From positions 41,842-105,841 of IMG/VR virus record IMGVR_UViG_3300033156_001223: a DNA stretch of 64,000 nt. The stretch is one strand, 5' to 3'. Below, piece after piece: positions 161-63,518 of this stretch. A program made the translations under genes and the position numbers. Within the stretch, counting starts at the first letter, position 1; each line of letters starts with the position of its first letter. The notes under the pieces are model-generated. The model was not told where the DNA came from, did not search any database, and saw nothing but the letters and a program-made list of their open reading frames with translations. This DNA is from a virus. Lineage: Duplodnaviria > Heunggongvirae > Uroviricota > Caudoviricetes.

Positions 161-232
161 TTGGGTGGTGGAAAAACTGTCAAGCACAATACTATTTTAC
201 AGGGAAAATGTGAAAAGAGGTAGCTAAAAAAT

Positions 233-10265: not shown

Positions 10266-10647
10266 AAGATTAAACTTAGTTATTATTTTAGCCCTAATTC
10301 TAGTGGCACTATTATGTGTTGCTACTAGTGGTACAGCTGAATATGTCCATAAAACAGTTAATACACAATGGTCAGGTTTAGCAGCTGTGGTGGTGGCAGC
10401 TACTGCTCTTATGACTGCACTAGTTTCCTTAGCAAAAATGGTTAATCACATGAATAATGATCTCATTCATCACTCAATAGAATCTCTAGAAGAAGATTTT
10501 ACTAGAAAGGAAAACGGGTTGCGTCACGAAGAACAACTAAGATCATTAACAGAAACCATGAAGCTTATTGATAGAAGATTGACTAAAATTGAAACTAAAC
10601 TGGATATGATTGAAAAGCACCTGGTGAACTACCCCTCATTGAAATGA
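10216..10647 (+). CDS. membrane-anchored coiled-coil protein (143 aa)
   Basis: Hydrophobic helix LVIILALILVALLCV; C-terminal coiled coil; its 3' end overlaps the tnpB 3' end. Confidence 0.4.
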   Translation: MNSNKRSNNSLQAAVNKRLNLVIILALILVALLCVATSGTAEYVHKTVNTQWSGLAAVVVAATALMTALVSLAKMVNHMNNDLIHHSIESLEEDFTRKENGLRHEEQLRSLTETMKLIDRRLTKIETKLDMIEKHLVNYPSLK

Positions 10648-40894: not shown

Positions 40895-43800
40895 AAGTAG
40901 GAGCCTGGGGGATGGTCAAATCATAGACTGTCTTTCTCCCAATCGGTTTTACCGAAATAACCCGCTTCCAGGAAATCATATCATTCTCTATTAACTCTTT
41001 CCATCTCTGGTATAGAGGGTCATCACTATTTATTTTTTCAATAATTCCCATAGCAAAGTCTCTAGACATCCTATTACTACTATATCGTGGGTAAACAATG
41101 GATCTCAACTTCTTTGGTAATGGAATAATATCTCTTTTAGTAAATTTAGTAGGTAACTCTTTTAATCTCTTTTGTTTGTGATTATGCAAATAAATTTGAT
41201 CTTTCTTAGTCATAATATCTACTGAATTCAAATATGCTCTGTAATAATTTCTTTGCTGCCCTTTATAAGTATATTTGCTATTACTAATTACTGATCTGAC
41301 TCCCAAACTCATTGCTAACATCGATATCTCATAGGCCAGTCTTTCGCTAGTAGTAGAAATATATACCTCTTTACCCTTTTTAGAAATGGTGCCATCTCCT
41401 GCAAGAAGCCCAGAAAGAAGCCCCAATCTAAATTCATATGGAGTAGATAGAAAAAACGTGGGGAGATGCTTGTTGTTAGCTCCTTCTCCAAATAGCACTG
41501 GGAATTCTCCAGCTAGTTTGGTTGAATAGATACGCACAAAATCACTTCTACCTGTTGGGAATTTCCGTATTACTGCTCCTCCTGTTTTATTTAGTTTTTC
41601 CCTACAAATCTTCAGTAAGTATTCTTTCATTTCATCACTAATTGTAGAAATCCTTATTTGGGTATTCCCCTTTTTCCACCCCGTGCAACATCCTTCAGCA
41701 CAATACATTCCAAAAAGAAAACCAAGATCATAATCTAAATCAACCTCTTTTCCATCCATTTCAATTTTCGTAATTTTTTCCTCAGCGGGAATATTTCTTA
41801 ATACTGGTAAATACATACCAACAGATTCTTTAGGAGTTACTCTCTTTAGTTCCAATGTCTCTGGATCAAGACAAAGCAAAGAATGGTCGTTCGAGACTAT
41901 CAAAGTCTTTCCTGATTCAGCAACAACTTCATAACAAGGAACATTTTTATGAACTGAGTAGCTGTAAGGATTTACCCATTTAAGCTCCAAAGCCTTTGGA
42001 TCCATAGCAAGTACTTTAAGATTTTCCTTTACTCTAAATTCTTTAATCTTCCCAGTATCCTTAACTTTTTCATCCTTCGGGAAGTCCTTCAAGTCAGTGA
42101 GATGCACCTCATCGTCATTAAGATAGAATATTTCACCCAATACACTATCACCATCAAAATCAGCATTGAATCCAGCTGTTACTAATGGGTGAATGTGGAT
42201 TACTTTATCTCGAACTATTCTAGGATAGAAAGCCATCACTCCATATTTATGGAGTACCGGATCCCTTTTTAAATAGACTGGTCTATTAGCCATCTCCCTC
42301 TCAAGTGCCCTTCTAGCTGCTTCCTCCTTATTCTCAACTACTAATCTAGCCCTAGCCGGACTATATCCAGCTTCCACCAATTTTCTCACTACAATTGGTT
42401 CAAAGATTTTCCAGGCCATGTCCTCTGGTATACCAACTTCATCTAAATGGAGTGATGGATCAGGGACAATCACACCTCGAGAAGAAAGATCTTGTCTTCT
42501 TTTGAGTAGAGCACTTTGAAAGTAACCAAGTTTTGGGCTTGGTCCAATAATAATATCCATCACAGACTTAAGCTTACGATTTATGCCGACCTCGAGTCCA
42601 TCAAGCTCCAAAGCTTTAACCGCATCATACAATTTAGCATATACTTTCCCATACTCCGCTTCAGGAAACTCTTTTCTAGCTATAGGTATCTGATTGTTGA
42701 CCATAGCAATATTTCTATATAAACCATTAATATCATGGACAGATATTCCCCCTTGTTTAAGCTGAACTAGAGGTCTGAAGAAAGAAGGAATGACAACTAT
42801 GTTTTTTCTAAGAAATATTTCTTCTGGTTTCTTATTTAATTTAATTATATTCCTCAAAATCTTAATTTTTCTGGCTAATACTGATTTTCTCTGGTCGTTA
42901 GCAGTTTTAATTTCCTGGGTGGCCTTAGCCAACTCTTTCTTTGGATCCAGTCTTCGTAAAAGCATTCTGAAAGCATCCCCAAATTTGTATTTACCATCTG
43001 GAGTAATTTTTCCAGTACTATCTACTCCGAGTTTCCCAGAAACTATATCTTTAAAAGTAGCAGAATTTATCTCCAATAGAATGCATAATGCTCGTTCAAA
43101 TATAGGATTTGGAACTACCTCATTAAGAGGAATGTGGTTATATTTAGTGCCGAAGAACCCTCCAGTAAGTCTTGGGTCAAATAATCCCCCCTCCTCAGCT
43201 ACTGGGTTTCCTTTTTTCATTCTGATAATTTTAGTTGCATCTATTTCCCCATTCGAGAGCTTAAGAATATCTTCATCAAATAGAGGAACAAATTGGAGAA
43301 CGTTTCCGAGCTTCTCTACATTAATCCCCAAGGCCCGAAGGTAAGATTCAAATTTCTGGTAAGTTAGAGGAGTTTTAGGTCTGGGTATTGGTAGGCCTGA
43401 TTGGAAAGCATACCAGAAATCTGGATTATAGTCACTTTTGTAGGTTTGTGCTTCATAAAGGTTTGCTTTTGCTCCGTGAGCCAACATTGCATATAAACCA
43501 AGATGCCCCAATGACTGAGCACCACCTTCAGATGATCCAAGAGGCAACGCATCATAACTATACTTTTCTCCTGCCCCGGCTCCTCGGGCATGTAGTTTAG
43601 GTTCCGCCCGATGTTTTAATTTCATAATATATTGTGGTCCTATGAAGACATCCGGTATGGGTTTTCCAGTCTTCGGATCAACCAAATCTTCTTTATCTGG
43701 AATTTTCAATCTCTTCAATTCATCCCTGATTTTGGAATAATAGTTCCCCATAAAATTTTCTACTGGGTAAGGCTTTCCGGTCTTCTCTGCTATTTTTCCA

Positions 43801-46214
43801 GCTAAAGTTTCCAACACCTGCCCCATATTCATACGAGAAATTACTCCAAGAGGATTCAAAACCACATCTATGATTTTACCATCCTTAGTTCTAGGCATTT
43901 CCGAATCAGGAATGATTGCTCCAATTACTCCTTTGTTTCCGTGCCTATTAGCCAGTTTATCTCCAACTTGTGCCGGCTCGGTGGTACGAATATAAACCTT
44001 AACGAATTTTGGTCTTTTGACTACCTTAACGACCTTACCGGGTGAGGAACGATTCCAAGTTATAGATCTATCTCTTTCAGGTATAGCTAGTTTTTTAGAA
44101 AACTTGGCAAGCAAGAATTGATCAGGAGTGGGCAGTTCTTTGTGGATTACCAAGATAATTGGGTCTCCTTCTTCGACCATCTGCCCAACCTTAACTACTC
44201 CGTCATCATCTAATTTATTAAGCTGATCTTTAGTAAATAGAGTAGAGGGGAATAGAGAAATATATCTCTTTTTATTTAAAGTAGTATCCTTGTCGACATA
44301 TTGGGAAAATTCATATAAATGCTCACTAGTAAGTTTCTTAGCAGCAGACTCCGAAATAACAATAGCATCATCAATATTATGTCCTTTGAAAGGCATATAA
44401 GCTACTAGGAGATTCTTACCAAAGGCAAATCTTCCTTCTTTAGTGTAATTAGTATCAAACAACAAATCCCCTTTTTTTACTTTCTGTCCTTCTTTAACCA
44501 GTGGTTCACTATCCAAAAAACCATCTTGTAAAGGATAATCCTTTGGCATAGATATCTTGTGAGTCTTTCCGGACTTATCTTTAACGTAAATATACTCAGA
44601 AGTAACCTTTGAAACGGTTCCATTAACCGGCGATTTATTGAAGAAGATGCCCATACTATCCAGTAGCTCCTCAGAGATTGGTGTTCCATTTATGACTGGG
44701 AAAACTAATGGATATTCTCTCTCTTTCAAAGGCAATGCCTGCTCCAATTGTTTTACTGCCATAAGGACTCTATTTCCGGAATCATAGTTGAGAAATGGCA
44801 CTAATGAAGTTAGGTGACTAAAAAAATCTAGTGGGTGTAGAGTAAAATAATCTATCTTGTCTTTATTCACAAAACCAAATTTCCCTTTACGTAAAGCCAT
44901 CCACCTATTACCCTTTACTGGTTTGATACCGATTACTGAGTTATATACTTGTTCTGGAGTAAGAAATTCTCTTCTTCCTCTTTTATCTTTTAAAATAACT
45001 ACTGGTTTTCCATCTTTATTAAATCCAGAAACTGCTGATGCCAAGTGAAGAGTTGTTCCAATCTTAATATTGTCTGGAGTATGCACCGGATCTAAAAAAA
45101 GAAAAGTACTGGGATTAATCATTCTCTGCTTATCTGTAACCCGGTGGATGTCTCCGATTCCACCCTCCCCCATAATAGTAACTTTGTTGACTGCACTCAT
45201 AGCAGAGATTGGTCCAGTAAAAGATTCAACATTAGATATTTGGCTGTTTGTAAAGAATGAGCGAACGGCAGGGGTAAAAAAACTACTTAAGCCTAAATCA
45301 GCTATTTTTTTGCGCTTGTCAACCGTATTCTTTAATCTATTCTTCAAAATTACCATTTTTCTTAATCTTTCTCCAAGAATCTCCGATGGGGTCACTATTT
45401 GCTTAAATAAGAGTGAATCTCTATCATCCTCCTTTCCTCCTCGAAGTATTTCAATTAATCTCTCAAGAGACCTAATTAAAGTATCAACGTCCACTTTCTC
45501 GTATTTCTTTCCTAAAGTAGCTTCTGTAACTTCCGGAGTAAGGGTAGTAGAATCCAATAGTTTCTTAAACTCTTCAGCTGGGTTGGGGGGTGCTTTCTCG
45601 TATCCCAAAGCCCTAAATAACTTATTGTAATTTAATGTTTTTTTGTAATTAATAGCATAAATCTTATCTCCAACAATATTCCTTAACTTTTCCTCTCCTA
45701 CTCCCAAGGATAATAGCAACGGGATTAGGGGGATGTGGACAGTGCCATACTCGAGTAGAATAGTAAAGTCTTTTGGATTAAGAATTAGCTTAATACCTCT
45801 TCCTTTTAGATTGATTTGATTAAAATTTGCTTGGATGGTATTATCTGCCTTCTTTTCATGATACACACCTGGCAACAATCTCATCTGAGTAGGAATATGA
45901 TATTCAGAACCACCAACTAAAAAAGTAAAGCGAGGGGTTAAGATTGGGATTCTTCCAATCAACACTCTTTTCTGATCCAAAACCTTACCATCTTTCGTCT
46001 TTAATACTGCTGTAGCATAAACAGGGATGTCCCAAGTTCTATCCTGCCATCGGTATTCTCGTTGGATATTGTAGTCGTGGAGATCTTTGTCAAACTTTGC
46101 CTCTAAATCTTTTATCTCCAAACGATGATTCTTCCCCTCAACAGGGAAAAAATCCTTGATTGATTCTAAGACGGAACTGACATACTTACGGATACTGGCT
46201 TCAAACTGAGTCAT
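40767..46214 (-). CDS. rpoBC: RNA polymerase beta-beta' fusion (rpoB fused to the N-terminal part of rpoC), carrying an intein after NADFDGD
   Basis: 1815 aa; beta motif NRHGNKGVIGAIIPDSEMP...DVVLNPLGVISRMNMGQVLETLAG; beta' N-terminal GGLFDPRL; catalytic NADFDGD at 42147-42167; Hint/LAGLIDADG region follows. Confidence 0.85.
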   Translation of the reverse strand: MTQFEASIRKYVSSVLESIKDFFPVEGKNHRLEIKDLEAKFDKDLHDYNIQREYRWQDRTWDIPVYATAVLKTKDGKVLDQKRVLIGRIPILTPRFTFLVGGSEYHIPTQMRLLPGVYHEKKADNTIQANFNQINLKGRGIKLILNPKDFTILLEYGTVHIPLIPLLLSLGVGEEKLRNIVGDKIYAINYKKTLNYNKLFRALGYEKAPPNPAEEFKKLLDSTTLTPEVTEATLGKKYEKVDVDTLIRSLERLIEILRGGKEDDRDSLLFKQIVTPSEILGERLRKMVILKNRLKNTVDKRKKIADLGLSSFFTPAVRSFFTNSQISNVESFTGPISAMSAVNKVTIMGEGGIGDIHRVTDKQRMINPSTFLFLDPVHTPDNIKIGTTLHLASAVSGFNKDGKPVVILKDKRGRREFLTPEQVYNSVIGIKPVKGNRWMALRKGKFGFVNKDKIDYFTLHPLDFFSHLTSLVPFLNYDSGNRVLMAVKQLEQALPLKEREYPLVFPVINGTPISEELLDSMGIFFNKSPVNGTVSKVTSEYIYVKDKSGKTHKISMPKDYPLQDGFLDSEPLVKEGQKVKKGDLLFDTNYTKEGRFAFGKNLLVAYMPFKGHNIDDAIVISESAAKKLTSEHLYEFSQYVDKDTTLNKKRYISLFPSTLFTKDQLNKLDDDGVVKVGQMVEEGDPIILVIHKELPTPDQFLLAKFSKKLAIPERDRSITWNRSSPGKVVKVVKRPKFVKVYIRTTEPAQVGDKLANRHGNKGVIGAIIPDSEMPRTKDGKIIDVVLNPLGVISRMNMGQVLETLAGKIAEKTGKPYPVENFMGNYYSKIRDELKRLKIPDKEDLVDPKTGKPIPDVFIGPQYIMKLKHRAEPKLHARGAGAGEKYSYDALPLGSSEGGAQSLGHLGLYAMLAHGAKANLYEAQTYKSDYNPDFWYAFQSGLPIPRPKTPLTYQKFESYLRALGINVEKLGNVLQFVPLFDEDILKLSNGEIDATKIIRMKKGNPVAEEGGLFDPRLTGGFFGTKYNHIPLNEVVPNPIFERALCILLEINSATFKDIVSGKLGVDSTGKITPDGKYKFGDAFRMLLRRLDPKKELAKATQEIKTANDQRKSVLARKIKILRNIIKLNKKPEEIFLRKNIVVIPSFFRPLVQLKQGGISVHDINGLYRNIAMVNNQIPIARKEFPEAEYGKVYAKLYDAVKALELDGLEVGINRKLKSVMDIIIGPSPKLGYFQSALLKRRQDLSSRGVIVPDPSLHLDEVGIPEDMAWKIFEPIVVRKLVEAGYSPARARLVVENKEEAARRALEREMANRPVYLKRDPVLHKYGVMAFYPRIVRDKVIHIHPLVTAGFNADFDGDSVLGEIFYLNDDEVHLTDLKDFPKDEKVKDTGKIKEFRVKENLKVLAMDPKALELKWVNPYSYSVHKNVPCYEVVAESGKTLIVSNDHSLLCLDPETLELKRVTPKESVGMYLPVLRNIPAEEKITKIEMDGKEVDLDYDLGFLFGMYCAEGCCTGWKKGNTQIRISTISDEMKEYLLKICREKLNKTGGAVIRKFPTGRSDFVRIYSTKLAGEFPVLFGEGANNKHLPTFFLSTPYEFRLGLLSGLLAGDGTISKKGKEVYISTTSERLAYEISMLAMSLGVRSVISNSKYTYKGQQRNYYRAYLNSVDIMTKKDQIYLHNHKQKRLKELPTKFTKRDIIPLPKKLRSIVYPRYSSNRMSRDFAMGIIEKINSDDPLYQRWKELIENDMISWKRVISVKPIGRKTVYDLTIPQAPTFVLKNGVIVWDTMVRFYIQSNVGTTPRYCVRTIFTYQRRKEN
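40863..42146 (-). other. intein (Hint domain with double-motif LAGLIDADG homing endonuclease), 428 aa
   Basis: Starts with Ser directly after DFDGD (SVLGEIFYL); block B ESGKTLIVSNDHSLLC; LAGLIDADG motifs LFGMYCAEG and LLAGDGT; block F/G VYDLTIPQAPTFVLKNGVIVWD then +1 Thr. Confidence 0.7.
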
Positions 46215-53288: not shown

Positions 53289-53597
53289 CTAGTCTTCACT
53301 AGATACTACTCTAGCACAAAAATCAAGAACATCAAGAAAAATTTCTCTGACCACCTTATCAGTGAGTTTCTTTCCTTTATATTTCTTTGTTATCTTCTTA
53401 ACTCCCTCTTCTACTTTTTCCATCCCTTTTTCGGATAATCTCCATCCATCATCACTAACTAAAAGCTCCGGATGCTTTAAACAATATCCACATACCTGAT
53501 AAGTAGGAAGGTCATGCTTTCCATCAGTAAACAACTTAACAGTATATTTAGCCTTATGTTTTCCACAAATATTACACTTATCCATTAGTCCCCCCAA
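53289..53597 (-). CDS. zinc-ribbon protein (102 aa)
   Basis: CNICGK...CGYC. Confidence 0.4.
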   Translation of the reverse strand: MGGLMDKCNICGKHKAKYTVKLFTDGKHDLPTYQVCGYCLKHPELLVSDDGWRLSEKGMEKVEEGVKKITKKYKGKKLTDKVVREIFLDVLDFCARVVSSED

Positions 53598-55399
53598 GTA
53601 TCAACAATTTTTGATTCCACATCAAGAGGAACACTGAGGCTGATATTAAAGATAGATAAAGGATTGGCCATTGTTTTTCTTACTATTGCCTCTATAAGTT
53701 CGGCGGATTCTTCCGGTGCTTCCAATACCAACTCATCATGAATTTGTAAAAGTAATCTAGCCCCCAATTCCTTTAATTTTGGATTATTTTCAATCTGAAT
53801 CATGGCTCCACGTAAGATATCTGCTACTCCGGCTTGAGGCCCAGTATTGAGAGCTTGTCTTGCTCCTTCCGCTAAGTCAGACTTCAGAGCCTTGATATGT
53901 CTAGGTCTACCTAAAATACTGCGGAGATGGGGAGGATCATGATTGAGTGCTTCATACTTAATATGGTAATAGTAATAAGAAAATCTCGGGTATAAAGTAA
54001 AATATGAATCGACAAATTCTTTTATCTGCTTGATCGTATAATTATACCCAACCTCTGCTAGCTGAGAGGCAATTGTCTCAGCTGAAGAACCATAATGAAG
54101 CCCCAGTACTAATGCTTTAATAACACTTCTTTGTTCATCAGTTAAATTTCTAATTCCAAATATCCTTTTAGCAGTGAGAGTATAAAAATCTCCACTCTTA
54201 CAAGCTTCTATCATATTAGTATCTCCGCAAAGATGTGCCATTACTCTAATTTCAGCCTGTGAATAATCACAGACAATTAATTTATATCCTGGAGATGCGA
54301 CAAAAGCTTTTCTGATCCCTACTTTATCATGTCTTTTGGGAATGTTCATGACATTAGGTTTTGAGCTAGAGATTCTACCAGTTTCAGTTCCGTGTAAATC
54401 AAAAGTGCTGTATAATCTCTTACCATCATACAATTGTATCTTCTCTAAAATGGGATCAACAAAGGAATTGAGTAGTTTTTGGTAGGCGCGATACTCAAGG
54501 ATGGGGGCTACATACTCTTGGAATTTTGGGTGGGTAGATAATTTTTGAAGGGCTTTAGAACTGGTGGAAGGTGCTCTGGTTTTAGAAGTTCTTTGAGTAA
54601 CCGGAAGACCAGCTGATTTAAAGAGAAAATCTGCTACTTGTTGGCTAGAGTTCAAATTAATCGGCTTACCAGCTAGTCTAGATACAGTGGTGATGCAGTT
54701 ACTAACAATGCTTTCTATCTCTTTCTTGATCTCTTGGAGTTTTTCAGTATCAATCCTGATTCCTCTCCTTTCCATCTGATACAAGCACATCAAAAATAAT
54801 TGCTCTACTTCTCGATAATAATCAAATAAACTTTTACCGTCTCTCCAAGGAATTGACTCCAATCTCTCTTTGAGAGCTAAAAATAAAAGATAAGTAACAT
54901 AGGCATCAAAAGTAGCATATTCGACTGTTAAATCCATATCTTCTAAAAAATCTGAGTCTTTAAAGACTTCTGAGAAACTTTTATTTTTGTAAATTTTTAG
55001 GTGGAGTTTACTTAAGTGTTTCAAACTATAATCTTTATTCTCAGTATCCAACAGCCACGCCATTACAATAGTATCATAAATTTCTCCGGCTACTTTTACC
55101 CCAAGATTCTCAAAACAATGCATATCATACTTAGCATTATGAAAAATCTTGGCTATTTTTGGATTAGACAAGAGAAAATCACATTCAAATACCAACTCTA
55201 AAGGCAAAAAGGCCCTAAATTTATCAGTAGCGACGGACCAACAGACAATTTTGTCCAACAACGCTGAATAGCCTGATTTTATTGAAGCTCCGTTCGTCTC
55301 CGTATCAATAGCAACCAAACTTACTCCTTCTATTAGTCTCCTTAAATCATCCGGATGATTAATAATTATTGGATCTGGAATATCGTACACGACAAACAT
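53585..55399 (-). CDS. family A DNA polymerase with N-terminal 3'-5' exonuclease domain (T7/Pol I-like)
   Basis: Exo I motif DTETNG; pol motif A DYSQAEIRVMAHL; motif C HDELVLEAP. Confidence 0.85.
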   Translation of the reverse strand: MFVVYDIPDPIIINHPDDLRRLIEGVSLVAIDTETNGASIKSGYSALLDKIVCWSVATDKFRAFLPLELVFECDFLLSNPKIAKIFHNAKYDMHCFENLGVKVAGEIYDTIVMAWLLDTENKDYSLKHLSKLHLKIYKNKSFSEVFKDSDFLEDMDLTVEYATFDAYVTYLLFLALKERLESIPWRDGKSLFDYYREVEQLFLMCLYQMERRGIRIDTEKLQEIKKEIESIVSNCITTVSRLAGKPINLNSSQQVADFLFKSAGLPVTQRTSKTRAPSTSSKALQKLSTHPKFQEYVAPILEYRAYQKLLNSFVDPILEKIQLYDGKRLYSTFDLHGTETGRISSSKPNVMNIPKRHDKVGIRKAFVASPGYKLIVCDYSQAEIRVMAHLCGDTNMIEACKSGDFYTLTAKRIFGIRNLTDEQRSVIKALVLGLHYGSSAETIASQLAEVGYNYTIKQIKEFVDSYFTLYPRFSYYYYHIKYEALNHDPPHLRSILGRPRHIKALKSDLAEGARQALNTGPQAGVADILRGAMIQIENNPKLKELGARLLLQIHDELVLEAPEESAELIEAIVRKTMANPLSIFNISLSVPLDVESKIVDTWGD

Positions 55400-55413: not shown

Positions 55414-55698
55414 TTATGCTCCTTTCAAAGTCCCTACTACCACTACTTTGTCTCCGGGAGTTACTTTACTGGAGAGCTTTGCTTCCTTACCATTAATTTG
55501 CACTTTTGTCTCTCTAGAATTGAATTCCGACTCAGAGTAGCCATGCTCAACTAACACCTCTTTTACTGTTTTTCCTCCCTTGTAATCAGTAAGAACAATT
55601 GGGTCTCCCCCAGGGAAGACTCCGATCGTGGTAGTTTCAGTGTACTCCTGAGTCGGATCTACAGACTTTGGAAATCCTTTGGGATCAACTTTGCTCAT
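55414..55698 (-). CDS. ubiquitin-like beta-grasp protein (ThiS/MoaD-like)
   Basis: 94 aa; ...KVQINGKEAKLSSKVTPGDKVVVVGTLKGA; C-terminus is Gly-Ala, not Gly-Gly. Confidence 0.5.
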   Translation of the reverse strand: MSKVDPKGFPKSVDPTQEYTETTTIGVFPGGDPIVLTDYKGGKTVKEVLVEHGYSESEFNSRETKVQINGKEAKLSSKVTPGDKVVVVGTLKGA

Positions 55699-56365
55699 TT
55701 GATTCCTCCTCCTTGAACACTTGTAAATTTAATGGGAAGCTACTCGCCACAATATAGTGAGGCACCGTCTTACCCTTCAAATAAGCGACAACACAATTAA
55801 CCATAGCATTAGCAATTAATACTGTATTGTTAACAATAGCTCTTTCATTGCATGGACTTTCTTCAGCATTTTCATCACTATCAAACGAAATCGAGTAATT
55901 CTCAATAATCGAATTCCGTGTGGTATCTACCCCATATACAACTCCATAGCTAATCGACATACGCCCGTCAACCCACAGCCTGACTTTATCTTTATTTTCT
56001 TCCCACAATTTTCTTCTAAGGTCAAGAGAATCAACTGCACAAACCACTATATCATCTAATTCTACCTCTTCTTTGAGCAAGTCAACATCATGGGTAACTA
56101 CATTACACCAATCTCCCATCGTTCTTTCAATCAATTCCTTCAGAGCTTCCACTTTTTTCTTACCTATTTCTCCTCTTCCATAAATCTGGTTCGGGACATT
56201 GTGGTCTTCAATCGTGTCGTGATCATATAAGTGAATGTTTCTAATCCCCAATTTTGCTAACTGGTATGCTACCCACGAACCCAGTGCTCCTACTCCGAGC
56301 ACATGTACTTTCCTTTCCCGAAATCTGTTTGGATCAAGAAAGGCAGCCTGTCTTAAGAAGTTCAT
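55685..56365 (-). CDS. E1-like adenylyltransferase (ThiF/MoeB family)
   Basis: VHVLGVGALGSWVAYQLAKLGIRNIHLYDHDTIEDHNVPNQIY (Rossmann/ATP motif); downstream DIVVCAVDSLDLRRKL. Confidence 0.7.
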   Translation of the reverse strand: MNFLRQAAFLDPNRFRERKVHVLGVGALGSWVAYQLAKLGIRNIHLYDHDTIEDHNVPNQIYGRGEIGKKKVEALKELIERTMGDWCNVVTHDVDLLKEEVELDDIVVCAVDSLDLRRKLWEENKDKVRLWVDGRMSISYGVVYGVDTTRNSIIENYSISFDSDENAEESPCNERAIVNNTVLIANAMVNCVVAYLKGKTVPHYIVASSFPLNLQVFKEEESNEQS

Positions 56366-56991
56366 TTTTTATTACCTCGCAAGTTATCTCCGTAGCTACG
56401 TCCATAATAGTTTGACCCATAGCGTCCAGGATAGTAAGTACTACCTGTGTAGTTGCCATAGTTATAATTGTAATTACCAGTGTAGGTGAACTTTTGAACC
56501 TTGGGTTCCACCTCCTCTTTAATCCACTTATTGCGATCGAAAGGAACCCACAGGCTTGCTTTCACACCCTCAATTTTGAGTCCAGTTTCTCTCCATAACA
56601 TACCGAAGTTAATCTCTTCTTTCGTCCCAATTGCCCAGAAGAAATACGGAGCATTCTTAAATAAATCATATTCTGACACATCAACTGAACTTGGGGATGT
56701 AAACCCGGAATGAGTGTGGAGGTAGAAACGAAGCTCGGACAGAATGTCAATATCTTTCTGGTTTACCAACTCAAGAACCGATTCGGGAACTATTTCAACA
56801 GAAGCAGCCGAAACTTTTTGCTTAGGGATTAATAACTCCTTTAATAGGAACTCGCTTTTCCCCAACTTTTCTACTAAACCAAGTGCTGCTACTTCTGGAG
56901 GGATTTGCGTGCATATAGCTCTCATCTTTACCCACACTTCTGGAACAATATACAGAGTGGGAGCAATATCTTGCATTAAACTAATTTTCAT
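56362..56991 (-). CDS. JAB/MPN (JAMM) metallopeptidase-like protein with Tyr/Gly/Asn-rich tail
   Basis: HTHSGFTSPSSVD approximates JAMM HxHx7SxxD; upstream Glu in EVAALGLVEK. Confidence 0.5.
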   Translation of the reverse strand: MKISLMQDIAPTLYIVPEVWVKMRAICTQIPPEVAALGLVEKLGKSEFLLKELLIPKQKVSAASVEIVPESVLELVNQKDIDILSELRFYLHTHSGFTSPSSVDVSEYDLFKNAPYFFWAIGTKEEINFGMLWRETGLKIEGVKASLWVPFDRNKWIKEEVEPKVQKFTYTGNYNYNYGNYTGSTYYPGRYGSNYYGRSYGDNLRGNKK

Positions 56992-58186
56992 TGTTTCCTC
57001 CTCTCAAGGTTTGTAATATCTGTAAAATCTTATCATTCGGACTGTGGAAGCATTCCAAAATCTCGTCTACTGCGGGTAATATCTCAGTAAGAGCCAGATG
57101 ATTATAAATTGAAGAAGTTCTATCAAAGAAATACATTTCATACTGCTTTTTCTTTTCTTCACCATCCCATTCCAGCCCCGGGAAAGTCTTTGCTCCGTGA
57201 GGAGTACCTAACAGATTCACATACAACCAACCATATTCGATCATAATCGTATGAGGAGAGAAATACTCATTTTCTTTGGTTTTAAACTGAACTGTCAAAG
57301 GAATCTCAAACCAATCCACATCTTCAATTCTCTGATCATCTTTCAGGATATTTGCTGCTTCCTGGATCTTATCTCTTAGTTCACACAAATATCTTTTCCT
57401 AGAAAGCCTTTGGAAATTATTCCTGAACCAACGGTCAACAGATTTTGTAGCATTTATTGCACGAGTCTGAATAACGGGGGAGATAGTTGCCCGTGGAAAG
57501 TTCCCATAAACTGCTAAATGTCTATACTTATCAATGAGTTGTTTTGACTTTTCTAAAAAGTGAGTAAATAGTTCTCTGGTCTGTTTACTGTCTTCATGAG
57601 TAACATCCCAATAGCAGAACAAATCTCCGGGCGGAACCCATCCTCCCGCTAAATTCCCATCATCATCTTTAATAGGAATTGCAAAATGATACTTATAAGG
57701 TGTGCAGGAGGGCACTTTAATACCAAACAATTTTGTAGGGTTGGTAATAGCAGAGAAATCTCCCCCAAAATATTTGGTATCGTAAGAATGGATAACTAAC
57801 AAATTATCATCACTTACCAACCCACCCGGTCCATGGGGCTGGAAGAAACACACACCTTCATACTTCTCTTCTAAGGAATTGTTAAAACTATTAATCATCT
57901 TAGCAATCTCAGAAGGATCCCACGATATGTGGGCTCCAAATACAGACACTTCTTGTTTAGGAAGCAAAGAAGTACATTTATTAACCGGAGGTAGTGTATC
58001 CCCCGTAAAAATAGTTGCTAACTCAGTATTATAACTAACTGGAACGAAATTCTTCAATATGTTTTTCCTTGGCACGTTAATCAATATTGCACAGAAAATC
58101 TCTGGTGGCATCATGAACAGATACTTACTTTTTAAATAATCAGTACTAGGAGCGTACCCCGGAAATAGAAACCATTCACCACTCAT
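56981..58186 (-). CDS. hypothetical protein (401 aa) in the Ubl/E1/JAB operon
   Basis: ORF overlapping neighbours by a few nt. Confidence 0.45.
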   Translation of the reverse strand: MSGEWFLFPGYAPSTDYLKSKYLFMMPPEIFCAILINVPRKNILKNFVPVSYNTELATIFTGDTLPPVNKCTSLLPKQEVSVFGAHISWDPSEIAKMINSFNNSLEEKYEGVCFFQPHGPGGLVSDDNLLVIHSYDTKYFGGDFSAITNPTKLFGIKVPSCTPYKYHFAIPIKDDDGNLAGGWVPPGDLFCYWDVTHEDSKQTRELFTHFLEKSKQLIDKYRHLAVYGNFPRATISPVIQTRAINATKSVDRWFRNNFQRLSRKRYLCELRDKIQEAANILKDDQRIEDVDWFEIPLTVQFKTKENEYFSPHTIMIEYGWLYVNLLGTPHGAKTFPGLEWDGEEKKKQYEMYFFDRTSSIYNHLALTEILPAVDEILECFHSPNDKILQILQTLRGGNNEN

Positions 58187-58195
58187 CTTCCCCTC

Positions 58196-59038
58196 CTATT
58201 TCTCTTTCCTAGTGCCAATTGCGTAAGGCCAGTTTCTCACATCAGAACCCCATGCATCATCAACATTAACATCAGATACGAATGCATCCAGTAGCAATCC
58301 TAGTGTCATATAATCCTTAGATTGTATTAGTGAAACCACTTGCTCCGCCACGTTTCCAAAGCATGCATTGTCTTTAATATGTGGATGCACCCTACCACTA
58401 CCACTCAAATCATGCACATTAACAAATCTCAAATCATCCCTTCTTCTAGACGAATAAGGAATTTTGACTACTACTCTTCCAAGATCATAGATGTGATTGC
58501 TGCTGCCTTTCCAAGTATGGGGGCGTAACACAATATAGACGGCATCAGAAACAGAAAGATACGACATCCCTGGAATAGGCTCAGCTAATGAAGGGGTAAT
58601 CTGGAAATTATTTGCTGATCTTGGAACAGGTACTCCATCTTCTCTCAAATCAAAGATCATTTCAGTATCCGAGTGGCTCACTAAAGCATCCCAATTCCTC
58701 ACTTTCATATACTTTGCTCCGGCAATTTCTAACTTATCTTTATGATAGACAACAACTTTAGGAAATTTACGGGCAACAGCTATCCAAAACCCTTCTGCGG
58801 GATATACGAGATCATCCTTATCGAGTTCTGGGACATCCTCATTTACATAAATAAATCCTTGTAGTCCTTCATCATTTGCTATTACTGACATTAATTCTTT
58901 CTTGCCTTTACTATTATATAAATACAATCTAATCCAAGGATATTTTTTTAAATCGTGTTGGCTGATTAATTCTGGTAATCCATAAATATGTGCCGACGCC
59001 GCTCTAATCTTCTTACTCATTTTGTCTCCTCCCTTCAC
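58196..59038 (-). CDS. hypothetical protein (280 aa); weak E2/UBC-like HPH-x5-C resemblance
   Basis: VHPHIKDNACFGN loosely resembles UBC HPN-x-C; speculative. Confidence 0.4.
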   Translation of the reverse strand: MKGGDKMSKKIRAASAHIYGLPELISQHDLKKYPWIRLYLYNSKGKKELMSVIANDEGLQGFIYVNEDVPELDKDDLVYPAEGFWIAVARKFPKVVVYHKDKLEIAGAKYMKVRNWDALVSHSDTEMIFDLREDGVPVPRSANNFQITPSLAEPIPGMSYLSVSDAVYIVLRPHTWKGSSNHIYDLGRVVVKIPYSSRRRDDLRFVNVHDLSGSGRVHPHIKDNACFGNVAEQVVSLIQSKDYMTLGLLLDAFVSDVNVDDAWGSDVRNWPYAIGTRKEK

Positions 59039-60066
59039 TCATTAAATACATCTAAGTCTTCAGGTTCATAAGATTTTTGCTGAGAATAGTCTGGCTCTTC
59101 TTGATATGGGACAGTGTGTACAGACTGTTGTTCTTTCTGGTAAGGATTTTTCACTCCTAAAATTATGGCTTGCCTCTCCAAAGGCAAAGGTCTGAATATC
59201 TCCTCAAAATCATACGGTTGAACCGATTCTAGATAATCTTTGGGAAGCTCCCTACACAGTTTCTCCTTGACTATTAAAGTTTTATATCCTCCTCTTCTTT
59301 CTTCTTGTTGCTGAACATACACTTCCAAATCAAATTTATATATTGAACCTCTTATTGCTTTCCCACAGTTACAGACGGTTTCCTGAATCAACTCGTTTGG
59401 CTTTGATACGTGTCTGCAACGAGGGCAGGTCCATGTCAAAGCCACTTGCTTTGCTTGATCAATCGGATGCATTTTCATCAGCTGCTGAGGTGGTATCAAG
59501 TCTGACCTACATTCCGGGCACTGTAAAGATTTTAGAGTAATATACCCCCCACAACTAACACACTTAGAAGCAAGTTCCAAATTTTTCTCCCTCAAAACCC
59601 CAAAATATCCTGGTCCAACTGTCCAGTAACGACGACCAATAATCTGGGGTTTGTTTCCGGACATACATTTGTCGCAAGGAATATCTTCAGCTAAGTTCTT
59701 TCGGCAAGCTACGAAACTAGTGGAACCATCTTCTGCTTCAATTTTATGGACTAAGTTTAGGTTTAATACAGTAATAACTCTACAAAATTGAGTACTAGAT
59801 ACCACGCTTTTCTGATCAGAATAAAAACACCCAACGCATTTTCCACCGAACTCGGGGTGTTCTGCACTGCATACTAAATACCTCACCTTCCCCCCCGAGA
59901 TGCAAACATGTCTTTTTACCTCATAAAACGGAAAAGGGAGAATTCTAATCGTAATTGGCATTGGATGTTTGTCAGGAGTCTGAATCGGAACTCTCAAAAA
60001 TTCTTTCCTCTCTGGAGAGCTAAAACCTCTTTCTTCCTGCCCAGGAAACTGCCAGTATTCCATCAC
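59035..60066 (-). CDS. multi-zinc-ribbon protein (343 aa)
   Basis: At least five CxxC pairs (CVGC, CDKC, CVSCGG...CPECR, CPRCRH, CNCGK). Confidence 0.45.
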   Translation of the reverse strand: MMEYWQFPGQEERGFSSPERKEFLRVPIQTPDKHPMPITIRILPFPFYEVKRHVCISGGKVRYLVCSAEHPEFGGKCVGCFYSDQKSVVSSTQFCRVITVLNLNLVHKIEAEDGSTSFVACRKNLAEDIPCDKCMSGNKPQIIGRRYWTVGPGYFGVLREKNLELASKCVSCGGYITLKSLQCPECRSDLIPPQQLMKMHPIDQAKQVALTWTCPRCRHVSKPNELIQETVCNCGKAIRGSIYKFDLEVYVQQQEERRGGYKTLIVKEKLCRELPKDYLESVQPYDFEEIFRPLPLERQAIILGVKNPYQKEQQSVHTVPYQEEPDYSQQKSYEPEDLDVFNE

Positions 60067-60308: not shown

Positions 60309-60611
60309 TTACTGGGCCAAATAAGGAGCAAGCAAACTTCTATATAATTCCATTAAGTCCTCATCTGGGTAGAGACGACCACCCCAGTCCGCTATTGAGT
60401 GTAAGTCAATCGAATACAATTTATACCCACAATTTGGACATTCTAAGGCTTCAAGAATCCATTCTGCGTAACTTATATCTTCCTCTTCAAGAGGATTGGT
60501 AGCACTTCCGTAAAAACGTTCAATGTACAAACTATATACCTTCAAATTTCGTATTTCAGTAATTTGCCCACATTCCGGGCATTTTACTCTGTCCATCAAT
60601 ATCCACCTCAA
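60309..60611 (-). CDS. zinc-ribbon protein (100 aa)
   Basis: CPECGQ...CPNCGY. Confidence 0.4.
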   Translation of the reverse strand: MRWILMDRVKCPECGQITEIRNLKVYSLYIERFYGSATNPLEEEDISYAEWILEALECPNCGYKLYSIDLHSIADWGGRLYPDEDLMELYRSLLAPYLAQ

Positions 60612-61513
60612 CTTTTTGATAGAATACCTTGAACTTGTAACCTTAACAAACTTTGCCTCTGGCTTAAAAGTTTTTCAATTTCCTCTTTGGTATAATCATC
60701 AGGTTGTCTCTTAGGACCTATTACAATTGAAACTCTACCAAAATCTAGTAGCTGGTAATATATTTTCTTGGTGCCTCGTCTACCAGCATCATCATTGTCA
60801 AGGAAAATGATGAAATCGCTACTAAGAGAACCAAGTAATAGAGCCTGTTCATGGCTCATACTCGCTCCCATAATTGCCACTGTATTTTCCCAGCCGTTTT
60901 GGACTAACCACAAACAGGCTTTGAATCCCTCAACAACTATTACTGGCTTCCCTCGCTTAACATGATGACCGTGATAAAGATGTCTGTGAGGATGGAATTC
61001 ATAATTTGGTACAAACTCTTTGATTTCAGAAATATAAAATCGATACTTTGGCTGATCGTCAGGATAAATGCTTCTACCAGAAATTCCTACCAAATTTCCT
61101 TGGATATCTCTAATAGAAAACACTATTCTCTTGCGATAATGATCAAAACCAATTTCATGTTCCTTTAAAACTTGAGGAGTAAATCCTTCTTGTAGCAAAG
61201 CTATTGGGCACTCCATAGTATACAAAGACAAAATCACATCGCTTAATTTGATATCCTCTCGCTTAGTAATAGATCGTGGGGCCAAAGATACCAGTTTTGG
61301 ATCTACTCCGATAATGTTAGCTAATTTTTCCCAGTTACCAGATGCTTGACAAACAAAGCAATGAAATAATCCAGTCCGCAGATTTATGTAGAGATGGTGG
61401 TCGTGATCCGGGTGGAAAATACACGGCACAGCAAATTCTCGTCCTCCACTTACAATCTTATAGTCAGTAAATTTATCCTGTAATACCTCTAATAAGTCTA
61501 GCATAGCTACCAC
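60608..61513 (-). CDS. DNA primase (DnaG-like: CHC2 zinc finger plus TOPRIM)
   Basis: CIFHPDHDHHLYINLRTGLFHCFVCQASGN; TOPRIM block VIVVEGFKACLWL...FLDNDDAGRRGT. Confidence 0.8.
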   Translation of the reverse strand: MVAMLDLLEVLQDKFTDYKIVSGGREFAVPCIFHPDHDHHLYINLRTGLFHCFVCQASGNWEKLANIIGVDPKLVSLAPRSITKREDIKLSDVILSLYTMECPIALLQEGFTPQVLKEHEIGFDHYRKRIVFSIRDIQGNLVGISGRSIYPDDQPKYRFYISEIKEFVPNYEFHPHRHLYHGHHVKRGKPVIVVEGFKACLWLVQNGWENTVAIMGASMSHEQALLLGSLSSDFIIFLDNDDAGRRGTKKIYYQLLDFGRVSIVIGPKRQPDDYTKEEIEKLLSQRQSLLRLQVQGILSKS

Positions 61514-62424
61514 ACGTCAATATTTATATCTTCTTCATTTTCTGCTTCCTCTGGCAGCACCCCACCACCAGGAACTCTAAGTTTCTCTGCCTCACGAGCA
61601 ATCTGTTTTACCCAATCATCAACATCTACTATCGGAAAGGTTGTATTTTCTTGCATACTAATTCCAGGTCTTGCTTCTATAACAAATGCACCTTCCTCAC
61701 CTTCTCTAGATTTTTTGATCAGCACAGCAATCATTCCTCTATCTCTAGAATACAGCAACCTAAGTACCACGTCAGTATCTCGGAAAAAGTCATAAGTAAA
61801 GGCAATATCGTCTGCAGAGCGGGAAGCTGCTGAACCTCGACGATTTGCTTGTGAAGTAGCAACAATAGAAAGACGGAACTCTTTAGCAATCTGTTTCATA
61901 TCTTGTGAAATAGTCATAAAATTCGTCCAATCCCTTTCCTTTAGCCCCTTAACTCTTAGTAGATGCATACCATCTAATAATAAAACAGCAGGACAAATCT
62001 CTTCCAGTTTCATCCTAATTACATCCAAAGTGAATTCCCTATCTTCATCAACTGCTTCTGAAATTACAATATTCTGCCCAATTTCTTTTACTTTCTCATT
62101 AGCTTCTATCAACTTTTTTTCTTCTTCTTCATTTAAAGTTCCAGTTCGTAATTTTCGGTAATCTACTCCGGCAACAAATGAAAGAAGCCTTCTAGATATC
62201 TGCTCCTTACTCATTTCTCTAGTAATGAAAAGACACTTCTGCCCGGCCTGGGCCCAAAAGTAACAACAATATACTAGGATCCAAGTTTTCATCATTGCCG
62301 AGTTGGCATATATCAAAACAAACTGTTCAGGCTCGAGCCCACCAGTAGCTTGATTTAAAGAAGACCAGGGGTAAGGAATTCCTACTAATCCTTGAGAGTG
62401 CTTACTTTGCCAATAATCTTCCAT
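61507..62424 (-). CDS. DnaB-like replicative helicase (C-terminal RecA-like domain)
   Basis: Degenerate Walker A ANSAMMKT, LDGMHLL and SQANRRGS blocks collinear with DnaB/T7 gp4. Confidence 0.7.
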   Translation of the reverse strand: MEDYWQSKHSQGLVGIPYPWSSLNQATGGLEPEQFVLIYANSAMMKTWILVYCCYFWAQAGQKCLFITREMSKEQISRRLLSFVAGVDYRKLRTGTLNEEEEKKLIEANEKVKEIGQNIVISEAVDEDREFTLDVIRMKLEEICPAVLLLDGMHLLRVKGLKERDWTNFMTISQDMKQIAKEFRLSIVATSQANRRGSAASRSADDIAFTYDFFRDTDVVLRLLYSRDRGMIAVLIKKSREGEEGAFVIEARPGISMQENTTFPIVDVDDWVKQIAREAEKLRVPGGGVLPEEAENEEDINIDVW

Positions 62425-62791: not shown

Positions 62792-63040
62792 TCAGCTTCT
62801 CCTAATCTTAAGTTCAGTGACCGAAAACGCATCCTCATTCTCTCTTTCAAATTCCGTTCTCGCCATAAAATGATCATTTACGTCTATTTCATACAAGTGA
62901 ATTGCCCTTTTTATAGCTTCTTCTTTGTCATGAGCCCTGACTCGAATTTCGTAGTAAAACTTCCCCGGAATACCTACTTCGAACAATTTTTCCTCTTGAG
63001 GTTCTTGATCCTGATTATGATCATTAACTTTCATTTCCAC
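62792..63040 (-). CDS. small acidic protein, member of a tandem paralog trio
   Basis: Shares the Y-Y-V-x-x-G...A-H/N-x-K/E-EEA...Y...F-x-A-T-x-FE pattern with the next two ORFs. Confidence 0.5.
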   Translation of the reverse strand: MEMKVNDHNQDQEPQEEKLFEVGIPGKFYYEIRVRAHDKEEAIKRAIHLYEIDVNDHFMARTEFERENEDAFSVTELKIRRS

Positions 63041-63054
63041 CCCCTAAAAAAGAT

Positions 63055-63285
63055 TCACATGTCAATTTCCTTAACATATGTGTCTTCTAGCTCAAAAGAA
63101 GTTGCTTCCATAAACTCATCACATGAAGCATCATTATATATCCCCCTAGCTAATATCTCAGCCTCTTCCTCATTATATGCTTCAACATAAAATGTAGTAA
63201 CATAAACACCACTAAAAGTAACCCGGTACCATCTAATTTGAGGTCTTTCCTCTTTCTGTTCACTATTATGCCCTAATACCTTCAT
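63055..63285 (-). CDS. small acidic protein, paralog 2 of the trio
   Basis: MKVLGHNSEQKEE...YRVTFSGVY...AYNEEEA...FMEATSFE. Confidence 0.5.
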   Translation of the reverse strand: MKVLGHNSEQKEERPQIRWYRVTFSGVYVTTFYVEAYNEEEAEILARGIYNDASCDEFMEATSFELEDTYVKEIDM

Positions 63286-63518
63286 TAGTCATCCTCCTCA
63301 ACCTCAATATCAGATCTTTCAAAGTTAGTACTGGCAAGAAAATCTTCTGGAGAATCCTCCTCATATAATATGATAGCATTATCCCTAGCTTCCTCTTTGT
63401 TGTGAGCAAGGACCCGAGCTCTATAGGAGAAATAGCCTGATATGGTTACATAATAGTAGCGAAGCTCTTCTGCACTATCTGTCTCGTGTTTCTGTTCTCC
63501 ATGCTTAACCACCTTCAT
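63285..63518 (-). CDS. small acidic protein, paralog 3 of the trio
   Basis: MKVVKHGEQKHET...YYVTISGYF...AHNKEEA...FLASTNFE. Confidence 0.5.
   Translation of the reverse strand: MKVVKHGEQKHETDSAEELRYYYVTISGYFSYRARVLAHNKEEARDNAIILYEEDSPEDFLASTNFERSDIEVEEDD

Follow-up and report, generated by a model that had tools for sequence, protein, structure and literature searches.

Whether a bacteriophage can carry a ubiquitin-like conjugation pathway of its own is the question raised by a gene cassette in the virus record IMGVR_UViG_3300033156_001223 (Caudoviricetes), of which a stretch of 64,000 nucleotides (positions 41,842 to 105,841; hereafter the window) was analysed. Six tightly packed open reading frames (ORFs) occupy window positions 55414-60066 on the minus strand. 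An earlier reading of the sequence alone (the sequence-only reading) had proposed that these six genes encode a ubiquitin-like protein (Ubl), an activating enzyme (E1), a JAB peptidase and three unknown partners, and that they lie between a DNA polymerase and a primase-helicase. All six ORFs were found there with the lengths it gave, the motifs quoted for them (HTHSGFTSPSSVD, HPH-x5-C and a C-terminal ...LKGA) are present in the sequence, and the flanking genes were identified as the polymerase, primase and helicase expected. The gene boundaries, described as overlapping or 4 nt apart, were nearly right: the genes for the 343- and 280-aa proteins (A343 and B280) overlap by 4 nt and the last three junctions within the cassette are overlaps of 11, 4 and 14 nt, the departure being a 9-nt gap between B280 and the 401-aa protein (C401); a further 14-nt gap separates the Ubl gene from that of the family-A DNA polymerase (PolA). 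The results presented here indicate that the cassette probably forms a self-contained, phage-encoded Ubl-conjugation pathway transcribed with replication genes.

The protein families described below were defined with iterative hidden Markov models (HMMs) built over 87 loci containing 6025 ORFs; in IMG/VR, a search with an E1 alignment matched 129 viral contigs, and the best 80 loci were kept. The 226-aa protein, proposed as a minimal E1 of the ThiF/MoeB type, matched the Pfam ThiF family (PF00899) at E=5.7e-25 (88.3 bits, cut-off 28.1) and its own family HMM at 3.6e-81, and is on sequence grounds a ThiF-superfamily E1. It possesses no CxxC zinc motif, ubiquitin-fold domain (UFD) or separate Cys domain, and its relatives in the PDB are mixed (PaaA, NEDD8-E1, MccB, TcdA, MoeB, Cap2 and Uba5). 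Residues G24, G26, G29 and D112 were invariant in 42 E1-family sequences, as was the crossover-loop Cys172 (S-x-C-G; 42/42), which is predicted to be the thioester-forming Cys as in Uba5, Atg7 and Cap2. Among the close homologues, 'ESPCNER' around this Cys does not vary.

As a single sequence, the 94-aa protein gave borderline Pfam matches to ThiS (E=1.2e-3, under the gathering score) and S4 (2.7e-3). A 26-sequence profile headed by it matched SAMP2 (1.2e-5), PF1061 of P. furiosus (1.8e-5), MoaD (2.3e-5) and ThiS (7.5e-4) in the PDB, and also SAMP1, TtuB and RnfH, with the solved modifiers aligned end to end; the beta-grasp fold proposed for the protein could have failed in this search and instead was upheld. 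Beta-grasp families likewise dominated a Pfam census of the family members (ThiS 8, SAMP2 7), and the window protein matched the family HMM at E=3e-16. These matches identify it as a ThiS/MoaD/SAMP-type beta-grasp Ubl ending in Gly-Ala. An Sm-fold reading (1th7, E=0.0024 with a shallow profile) was rejected, as its E value rose to 0.8 with the deeper profile. The LKGA terminus was invariant in all four close homologues, and family-wide the Ubls end in [KR]-G-[NA] plus 0-2 residues, many of them consisting of two or three head-to-tail repeats, each of which closes in KGN.

The 209-aa protein had no Pfam match on its own and was also left unannotated by PHROG, PADLOC and NCBIfam. It matched its family HMM at 6e-35, 11 of the 50 family members matched Pfam Prok-JAB, and the motif residues E33, H92, H94, S101 and D104 were invariant across the family, which bears out the proposed JAMM/MPN-like peptidase; by these motifs the protein is a JAMM peptidase. 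Its PDB matches were to AMSH-LP/STAMBP only (E 0.2-0.3, aligned over E...HxH...S..D), and its spacing after HxH is one residue under the canonical one. Since poly-Ubl and BilA-like precursors end in a Gly followed by extra residues, trimming of the 94-aa protein by this peptidase after Gly93 would be the natural reading.

Ubl, JAB and E1 also make up sulfur-carrier systems, of which HcyS/HcyD/HcyF, QbsE/QbsD/QbsC and CysO/Mec+ are examples, and in HcyS a blocking Ala is taken off by a JAMM protease. The cassette might on this basis produce a trimmed Ubl which, after adenylation by the E1, becomes a thiocarboxylate and donates sulfur to a cofactor, tRNA or DNA modification, and ThiS, MoaD, TtuB, ThiF and MoeB are indeed among the best matches of the Ubl and E1 in Pfam, NCBIfam and the PDB. 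This explanation is nevertheless very improbable. The mature Ubl would end in Lys-Gly, not Gly-Gly; the E1 scored under every NCBIfam equivalog cut-off (73.6 vs 159 bits for ThiF, 45.3 vs 266 bits for MoeB); poly-Ubl precursors are common in the family; and an E2-like gene with a near-invariant Cys, described below, adjoins JAB/E1 in 63 of the 87 loci. No sulfur, molybdopterin or thiamine gene was present among the 20 window ORFs scanned, and no rhodanese, cysteine desulfurase or other sulfur-using enzyme, nor any virion protein, was found among 150 genes flanking viral cassettes, so that the absence of sulfur metabolism from the neighbourhood, remarked on earlier, extends to related loci. In its K-G(-A) end, sub-cut-off E1 and lack of sulfurtransferase or biosynthetic neighbours, the cassette thus differs from ThiS-ThiF and MoaD-MoeB as well as from HcyS/F/D and QbsE/C/D, and on these grounds the E1 is very probably not a sulfur-carrier MoeB or ThiF in a cofactor context.

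The protein that would turn these components into a conjugation pathway is B280, in which a weak signature of conjugating enzymes (E2s) had been noticed. Only 3-4 homologues of B280 and C401, with 49-57 % identity, were found among 5.8 billion proteins, and single-sequence scans of B280 (Pfam, PHROG, PADLOC and NCBIfam) gave no family match. Within the close homologues, 'HPHI..NACFGNVA' was invariant. Long proteins encoded beside related E1s end in a domain homologous to the C-terminal half of B280, of which aa 155-272 matched the resulting E2-like family HMM at 2.9e-24. The UBC signature of E2s reads Y-x-G-G-x-F-x-L-x-I ... HPN[IV]-x3-G-x-[IV]-C-L-D ... L-L-x-x-P-N-x-x-D-P, and the consensus of the family, Y-x-[IL]-G-x-F-x-I-x-I ... 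[FW]-x-N ... HPH[VI]-x3-G-x2-C-[LWF]-G-N ... F[LI]E[ST]-V-N-x-x-D-x-x-G ... W-P, agrees with it in order and spacing, with HP[NH]-x7-Cys in the family consensus and HPH-x5-C226 in B280. The candidate catalytic Cys was present in 73 of the 76 E2-like domains. Aligned by hhalign with four canonical E2 sequences, the 76-domain family gave a probability of 91.4 % (E=9e-7, 83 columns), compared with at most 0.5 % for the JAB, Ubl and E1 controls. In hmmsearch, a profile of 30 sequences with B280 at its head scored the same four E2s at per-sequence p values of ~3.5e-6 to 2e-3, and HPH fell on HPN, the family Cys on the catalytic one and VNxxD on PNxxD. The C-terminal half of B280 is therefore very probably a UBC/E2-like domain, and by these profiles the E2-like domains very probably form a UBC-like family outside current models.

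C401 had been listed as unknown, and no database family was indeed found for it in the single-sequence scans, nor any relative beyond its own family in a HMMER search of 1.84 billion representatives. An identity did emerge within the 6025-ORF locus set, where its four best non-self matches were all E2-bearing proteins encoded next to an E1 (hereafter X proteins), the best (E=1.9e-4) spanning a globular stretch rather than coiled coil; profile iteration gave 30 domain matches, all in X proteins. With these C401 has in common an N-domain (PHG ... F-x-I-x-[IV]-W-S ... [LM]-[FW]-G ... D-x-x-G-x-x-V-A ... L-Y-I-x-x-D-x-x-H), the coiled-coil segment and the opening strands of the E2-like domain. The protein most closely related to it (L022|4760) is likewise a duplicate without the Cys that lies next to an active copy, and other loci carry 2-5 E2-like paralogues, some of them Cys-less, including a pair of 407 and 284 aa in locus L015, sizes as in the window. 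By sequence comparison C401 is a catalytically dead paralogue of an E2-bearing protein, and because it has the N-domain common to X proteins, lacks the Cys loop and has counterparts in active/Cys-less pairs elsewhere, it is best read as a partner of the active B280 resembling the ubiquitin E2 variants (UEVs). The AlphaFold2 (AF2) model of C401 had a confidence (pLDDT) of 35. In one IMG/VR phage contig (L028, 2-5916), five consecutive E2-like paralogues were seen upstream of JAB-E1, at least two of them without the catalytic Cys.

Homologous cassettes do occur in related phages, four of the six genes recurring in most of the 87 loci. The window E1 has ~100 relatives of similar minimal length (30-41 % identity), many on contigs of 100-240 kb, and the 129 IMG/VR viral contigs carrying E1 relatives are mostly of 40-220 kb. 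The first four neighbourhoods each comprised a long protein, a ~340-aa protein, the E1 and a small protein; the JABs here are the ~340-aa proteins, in which the motif recurs and often the Tyr/Gly-rich tail as well, and the small proteins are Ubls ending in RGAA, RGNN or QGN, some of them in tandem. An E2-like domain was detected in 63 of the 87 loci, directly beside JAB/E1. JAB ORFs numbered 89 and were present at almost every locus, and there were 66 Ubl ORFs. The commonest gene orders were Ubl-E2-JAB-E1 (21), E2-JAB-E1 (14), JAB-E1-Ubl (12) and E2-JAB-E1-Ubl (7).

The 12 loci with JAB-E1-Ubl and a further seven with JAB-E1 and no detected E2-like gene could be taken to mean that tagging is E2-independent, in the manner of archaeal SAMPylation, in which UbaA works without an E2, or that the Ubl, JAB and E1 serve a non-covalent regulation; B280 and C401 would then be replisome accessory proteins, with HPH...Cys in a metal-binding or other role. 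No solved protein is closer to the Ubl than SAMP2, and the X and Y proteins of the crAss-like phages discussed below show no detectable relation to the E2-like family, which is in keeping with this explanation. It is nonetheless improbable, given that the E2-like gene stands directly beside JAB/E1 in most loci, that several of the E2-less loci lie on truncated contigs, and that the motif register with canonical E2s spans ~83 columns.

The immediate surroundings of the cassette are also conserved. The block from primase to PolA was syntenic on three independent metagenomic contigs (49-89 % protein identity), the order on the close contigs being primase, a 58-aa ORF, A, B, C, JAB, E1, Ubl, PolA, RecA and PD-(D/E)XK nuclease; in contig L003 the order primase-cassette-PolA-RecA-PD-(D/E)XK is retained. 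With this synteny and the recurrence of four of the genes as a cassette, the arrangement cannot be put down to chance. Identities to the L003 orthologues were 89 % for PolA, 86 % for RecA, 83 % for A343, 82 % for E1, 76 % for JAB, 73 % for Ubl, 57 % for C401 and 49 % for B280, which marks the last two as fast-evolving parts compared with E1, PolA and RecA. Blastn of the cassette DNA against phages gave no match, nor did searches for related loci with the single E1 and C401 proteins.

For the components identified above, we infer processing, a thioester relay, conjugation and a purpose from what is known of their families. The 94-aa protein would be made as a blocked precursor (...K-G93-A94), from which the JAMM peptidase would take off the residue after Gly93; the same enzyme could later reverse conjugation. 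The E1, presumably a homodimer like MoeB, Uba5 and Atg7, would adenylate Gly93 and take the Ubl onto Cys172 as a thioester, and the Ubl would then be handed to Cys226 in the UBC-like domain of B280. B280 would move it to a target lysine, helped by C401 as a UEV-like partner or substrate adaptor. As B280 and C401 are the fastest-evolving components and are duplicated in related cassettes, it is most likely these two that choose the target. Host takeover, counter-defence, replisome control and inter-phage conflict may each be the purpose; our best guess is that the phage would use the tag, early or midway through infection, to inactivate host proteins, those of defence included, or to divert them.

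A number of results count against this pathway. No E3 ligase and no target were found. Sulfur carriers are among the solved structures nearest to the Ubl, and SAMPs serve both jobs; the SAMP2 alignment pairs the Gly of the family with the penultimate Gly, so that processing of Ubls extended by one residue is putative. As regards B280, the directed tests (hhalign and hmmsearch) relied on four E2 sequences that did not come from database records, and in the PDB-wide search, where the B280 profile gave 25 matches comprising UBE2L3 (eight distinct sequences), UBE2N, a plant UBC and otherwise ankyrin-repeat artefacts, the E2 matches (E 0.6-1.9) were not significant. The Pfam E2 models (UQ_con and Prok-E2) matched none of 45 E2-like family members. 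AF2, run on a shallow alignment, was confident for aa 8-122 of B280 only; aa 123-280 had a pLDDT below 50, with a predicted order of four strands, HPH, Cys and three helices, and Foldseek searches of the pdb and viral sets with the low-confidence AF2 models returned no match. The cassette was found in cellular genomes too, and the evidence fits superinfection exclusion as well as a pro-phage role.

These last two points bear on the alternative that the cassette is a Bil-like defence or superinfection-exclusion module which tags the proteins of competitor phages, either as a phage-carried weapon or as a captured cellular defence island. The parallel with Bil lies in four parts (Ubl, E2, JAB and E1), the existence of multi-beta-grasp Ubls, the absence of an E3, and a Ubl in which Gly is followed by a blocking residue: BilA of E. 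aridi ends in Gly97-Ala98, the window Ubl in Gly93-Ala94. In the crystal structure of Type II Bil, Ala98 of BilA is placed so as to block ATP binding and adenylation, and in BilA homologues as many as nine variable residues come after the conserved Gly (PMC10557695). The Bil-type kinship suggested earlier holds for this four-part logic and for the Gly-plus-block end, but not for the E1 and E2. The Bil E1 is a multidomain protein (IAD-AAD-CYS), whereas the window E1 is a single domain of 226 aa whose Cys lies in the crossover loop. BilB, a small free-standing E2, bears a Cys...His (CEHH) signature (PMC10557695), and by these described features it is set apart from the cassette E2 domain, which is of the HPH/HPN type, forms the C-terminal part of larger proteins (280 aa in the window, ~200-890 aa elsewhere) and is accompanied by an extra N-domain, usually with a coiled coil.

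Cellular occurrence was assessed by a degenerate DNA-pattern scan of species genomes, which gives a lower bound. At least ~50 true cassettes were found in species genomes and metagenome-assembled genomes (MAGs), from Methylomirabilota (~20), Patescibacteria (Saccharibacteria, Paceibacterota, Falkowbacteria and others), Melainabacteria, Woesearchaeota and assorted phyla. Some of these lie on contigs of 0.2-1.2 Mb, in keeping with the defence alternative, and fast-evolving, duplicating E2-like proteins fit an arms race; many others are on short MAG contigs that may be binned phage DNA. One four-gene cassette was located between ClpB/RecX and sigma factor/RecG in a 943-kb bacterial genome (GCA_016699995.1; L016, 5203-8976), and the surroundings of the cassette in such small-genome bacteria look chromosomal. 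Cassettes were especially frequent in Methylomirabilota MAGs (among L097-L171), where the 8-kb loci often yielded no JAB.

The neighbours of the viral cassettes can be read in both directions. Few of 150 genes flanking ~40 non-redundant viral cassettes had Pfam matches, and those that did encoded DNA ligase, single-stranded DNA-binding protein (SSB), PCNA, helicases, PD-(D/E)XK, MazG, HNH and eight reverse transcriptases, the last of which would suit defence. Bil is found in bacterial defence islands, whereas this cassette occupies a fixed site in the replication module in the window family, in Steigviridae and in phage FpV4; moreover, the GC content is flat across the region and PADLOC detected only the generic E1 part. 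A defence or exclusion role is therefore unlikely, and since the cassette is syntenic in the replication modules of diverged phages, a captured island is the less likely half of what the sequence-only reading had offered, a phage conjugation or counter-defence system being favoured. The eight reverse transcriptases belong to RVT_1 (best E=2e-26) and accompany cassettes in L017-L068.

The phage conjugation pathway was also compared with other known systems. Bub (6E/DUF6527) is similarly a diverged prokaryotic Ubl/E2/E1 (+JAB) operon with a peptidase-cleaved precursor and highly variable Ubls, but its E1 and E2 have no catalytic Cys and act by way of Tyr/Ser oxyesters, and its operon includes the DUF6527 serine protease; here the E1 Cys is invariant, the E2 Cys near-invariant, and none of the six proteins matched DUF6527. 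Type II CBASS possesses a JAB and a non-canonical, homodimer-type E1 related to Atg7/Uba5, and the best PADLOC matches of the window E1 were indeed Cap2 models, covering aa 3-126 only, with the other cassette proteins unmatched. In Cap2, however, E1 and E2 are fused, and what it conjugates is a CD-NTase, not a beta-grasp Ubl, whereas the cassette has no CD-NTase, a dedicated Ubl and separate E1 and E2 genes. The SAMP/UbaA/HvJAMM1 and Thermus TtuB/TtuC systems share small Ubls of the ThiS/MoaD clade, a minimal MoeB-like E1 and JAMM removal; they differ in having no E2, a Gly-Gly end and a second function as sulfur carriers. With eukaryotic ubiquitin the likeness extends to the HP[NH]-x7-Cys spacing, a PNxxD-like motif after helix 2, the Y-x-G-x-F-x-I-x-I strand, head-to-tail poly-Ubl precursors with an extra terminal residue, and an active E2 paired with a Cys-less paralogue as in Ubc13-UEV. 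The differences are an identity of only ~17 %, no RING/HECT E3, no UFD-bearing E1 and a Ubl of the ThiS/MoaD/SAMP clade.

The closest parallel in position is found in crAss-like phages (Steigviridae) and FpV4, in which the proteins labelled 'ThiF' matched the E1 family HMM at 1e-46 to 1e-36 and the 'metalloproteases' (crAss001 gp77-type) matched the JAB family HMM at 1e-16 to 1e-10. Both genes belong to a fixed five-gene block between primase and uracil-DNA glycosylase; in crAss001 (gp75-gp79) this is likewise beside the primase in a replication module. Its first gene (gp79) encodes an N-terminal Ubl-like domain ending KKIKSG|A. The crAss E1 and JAB differ in carrying extra N- and C-terminal domains, and no relation to B280 or C401 could be detected for the X/Y proteins, in which YMHSH...C.G is invariant: when the window families were compared with the gp75, gp78 and gp79 families by hhalign and HMMER, nothing beyond E1 emerged, and a resemblance of YMHSH...C.G to HPH...C.G seen by eye is not claimed as homology. 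As separate observations, gp79-type proteins (L001, 4250-4927, crAss001) consist of the Ubl-like domain, a small helical region, an acidic linker and a conserved ...SEIDDMFxFV tail, and in cr106_1 (L010, 1189-2392) the Ubl domain has become an ORF of its own, ending in KKIKSGKF, through an HNH endonuclease gene that lies immediately behind it. The Xanthomonas jumbo phage PhiXhv-12 (L008, 2736-7488) has its locus between DNA ligase and topoisomerase, with an E1 of the same family annotated as 'thiamine biosynthesis protein', a 140-aa Ubl ending in GG (...AKASGG) and an 892-aa E2-like protein that contains IHPH...SLCLG and has Cys-rich N- and C-termini (CxxC/CC clusters).

Extended to large phages in general and to the more diverged crAss-like phages, the proposal becomes tentative: these viruses might run their own Ubl conjugation, with an HPN-type E2, polyubiquitin-like precursors and an active-E2/dead-E2 pair, tagging host or phage proteins during replication. 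If this were true, it would amount to a viral 'ubiquitin system' in bacteria that mirrors Bil, Bub and CBASS defence, and to a previously unrecognized prokaryotic E2 family nearer to eukaryotic E2s in motif than BilB.

Prokaryotic ubiquitination-like operons are already known, and the cassette differs from Bil, Bub and CBASS on their defining features, being set apart by its minimal E1, its HPN-type, Cys-bearing E2 with N-domain and coiled coil, its dead-E2 paralogues and its residence in phage replication modules. A literature search of incomplete coverage, including that of the 6A-6E operon classification of the Aravind group, found no earlier description of a phage Ubl/E1/E2/JAB cassette. 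In single-sequence scans, Pfam, NCBIfam and PADLOC were blind to the cassette apart from the E1, and the E2-like family defined here is one that their models overlook. CBASS Cap2/3, Bil and Bub are currently seen as bacterial antiphage weapons, and this cascade sits on the phage side; if it is active, what does a phage ubiquitinate? The family is present on at least 129 viral contigs, and crAss-like phages, which rank with the most abundant viruses of the human gut, carry its E1 and JAB as fixed genes. The routine label 'thiamine biosynthesis protein ThiF' is corrected for dozens of phage records. Since Patescibacteria and Methylomirabilota genomes have the cassette too, it may be asked on which side it arose. 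For biochemistry, the window offers a compact set of a 226-aa E1, a ~73-aa Ubl domain and a ~130-aa E2 domain. The coordinates of these features and of the other genes mentioned are given in Table 1.

Table 1. Cassette genes, their sequence features and other genes of the window (window coordinates; aa, residue numbers)
Feature	Position	Strand	Description
pro-Ubl, 94 aa	55414..55698	-	~21-aa N-terminal extension and ThiS/MoaD/SAMP-type beta-grasp domain (aa 22-94)
pro-Ubl end ...GTLK-G93-A94	55420-55422 (G93 codon); 55417-55419 (A94 codon)		
E1, 226 aa	55685..56365	-	minimal; single ThiF-type adenylation domain
E1 features	55850-55852 (Cys172 codon)		GVGALG aa 24-29; D112; Cys172 in 'ESPCNER'
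JAMM/MPN+ peptidase, 209 aa	56362..56991	-	E33, H92-x-H94, S101, D104 (56680-56718)
JAB tail	aa ~170-209		Tyr/Gly/Asn-rich
C401, 401 aa	56981..58186	-	Cys-less paralogue of E2-bearing X proteins (by sequence)
C401 X-N globular domain	aa ~77-215		motifs QPHGPGG, LFG, DDDGNLAGG, DLFCYWDVTHE
C401 helical/coiled-coil segment	aa ~200-282		followed by degenerate E2-like region without HPH...Cys loop
B280, 280 aa	58196..59038	-	N-terminal alpha/beta domain aa 8-122
B280 UBC/E2-like domain (very probable)	58199-58612 (aa 143-280)		
B280 E2-like motifs	58379-58387 (H218-P-H220); 58361-58363 (Cys226)		Cys226 catalytic candidate; N258-V-D-D261
A343, 343 aa	59035..60066	-	multi-zinc-ribbon; CxxC pairs 77/80, 131/134, 168/171, 183/186, 214/217, 232/234
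A343 C-terminal tail			acidic, aromatic (...EPEDLDVFNE); gene co-transcribed with cassette
PolA	53585-55399		flank; family-A DNA polymerase with 3'-5' exonuclease
Primase	60608-61513		flank; DnaG-type
Helicase	61507-62424		flank; DnaB_C
RNA polymerase beta/beta'-N fusion and beta'-C protein	38822-46214	-	fusion 1815 aa, Rpb2_6 + Rpb1_1/2; beta'-C 690 aa
TnpB/IS605 OrfB-type gene	10636-11841	-	OrfB_IS605 + Cas12f1-like TNB + helix-turn-helix
Three tandem small ORFs	62792-63518	-	82, 76 and 77 aa

The remaining gene of the operon, A343, does encode zinc ribbons and does adjoin the others as proposed, but as a conserved member of the cassette it fell away: homologues were found only in the two closest contigs and were absent from the other 85 loci, for which reason it is probably not core. 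Its zinc-finger matches were all sub-threshold (Pfam and NCBIfam), and tblastn in phage records and searches against the PDB gave no match. In its conservation (83 % to L003) it resembles the replisome proteins, unlike B280 and C401, and a role as either adaptor or replisome component would be compatible with its zinc ribbons and its acidic, aromatic tail. A pattern H53-x12-C66-x10-C77-x2-C80 was also observed, with the acidic tail ending in DLDVFNE as in phage SSBs; it is similar to the zinc site of T4 gp32 (H-x12-C-x9-C-x2-C). An SSB role is not claimed, and the tblastn and PDB searches neither back nor refute one.

The family HMM scan found a single copy of the cassette in the window, in which no tRNA genes were detected and the GC content is 36-43 % across the region. 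RecA, a PD-(D/E)XK nuclease and RusA are also among the flanking genes, further downstream. As an identical C401 protein is carried by a 142.6-kb contig, the window can be taken to derive from a large phage.

Several other genes of the window were observed in passing. A multisubunit RNA polymerase is encoded as a beta/beta'-N fusion that is interrupted at aa ~1388-1782 by an intein bearing a LAGLIDADG homing endonuclease, and its gene is followed by that of a 690-aa beta'-C protein (Rpb1_3/4/5). A class II ribonucleotide reductase and a TnpB-type protein are also encoded. The three tandem small ORFs appear by eye to be mutual paralogues with acidic ends, having in common the pattern ...Y..V...G.....V.A...EEA...AI.LYE.D....F.A...FE...

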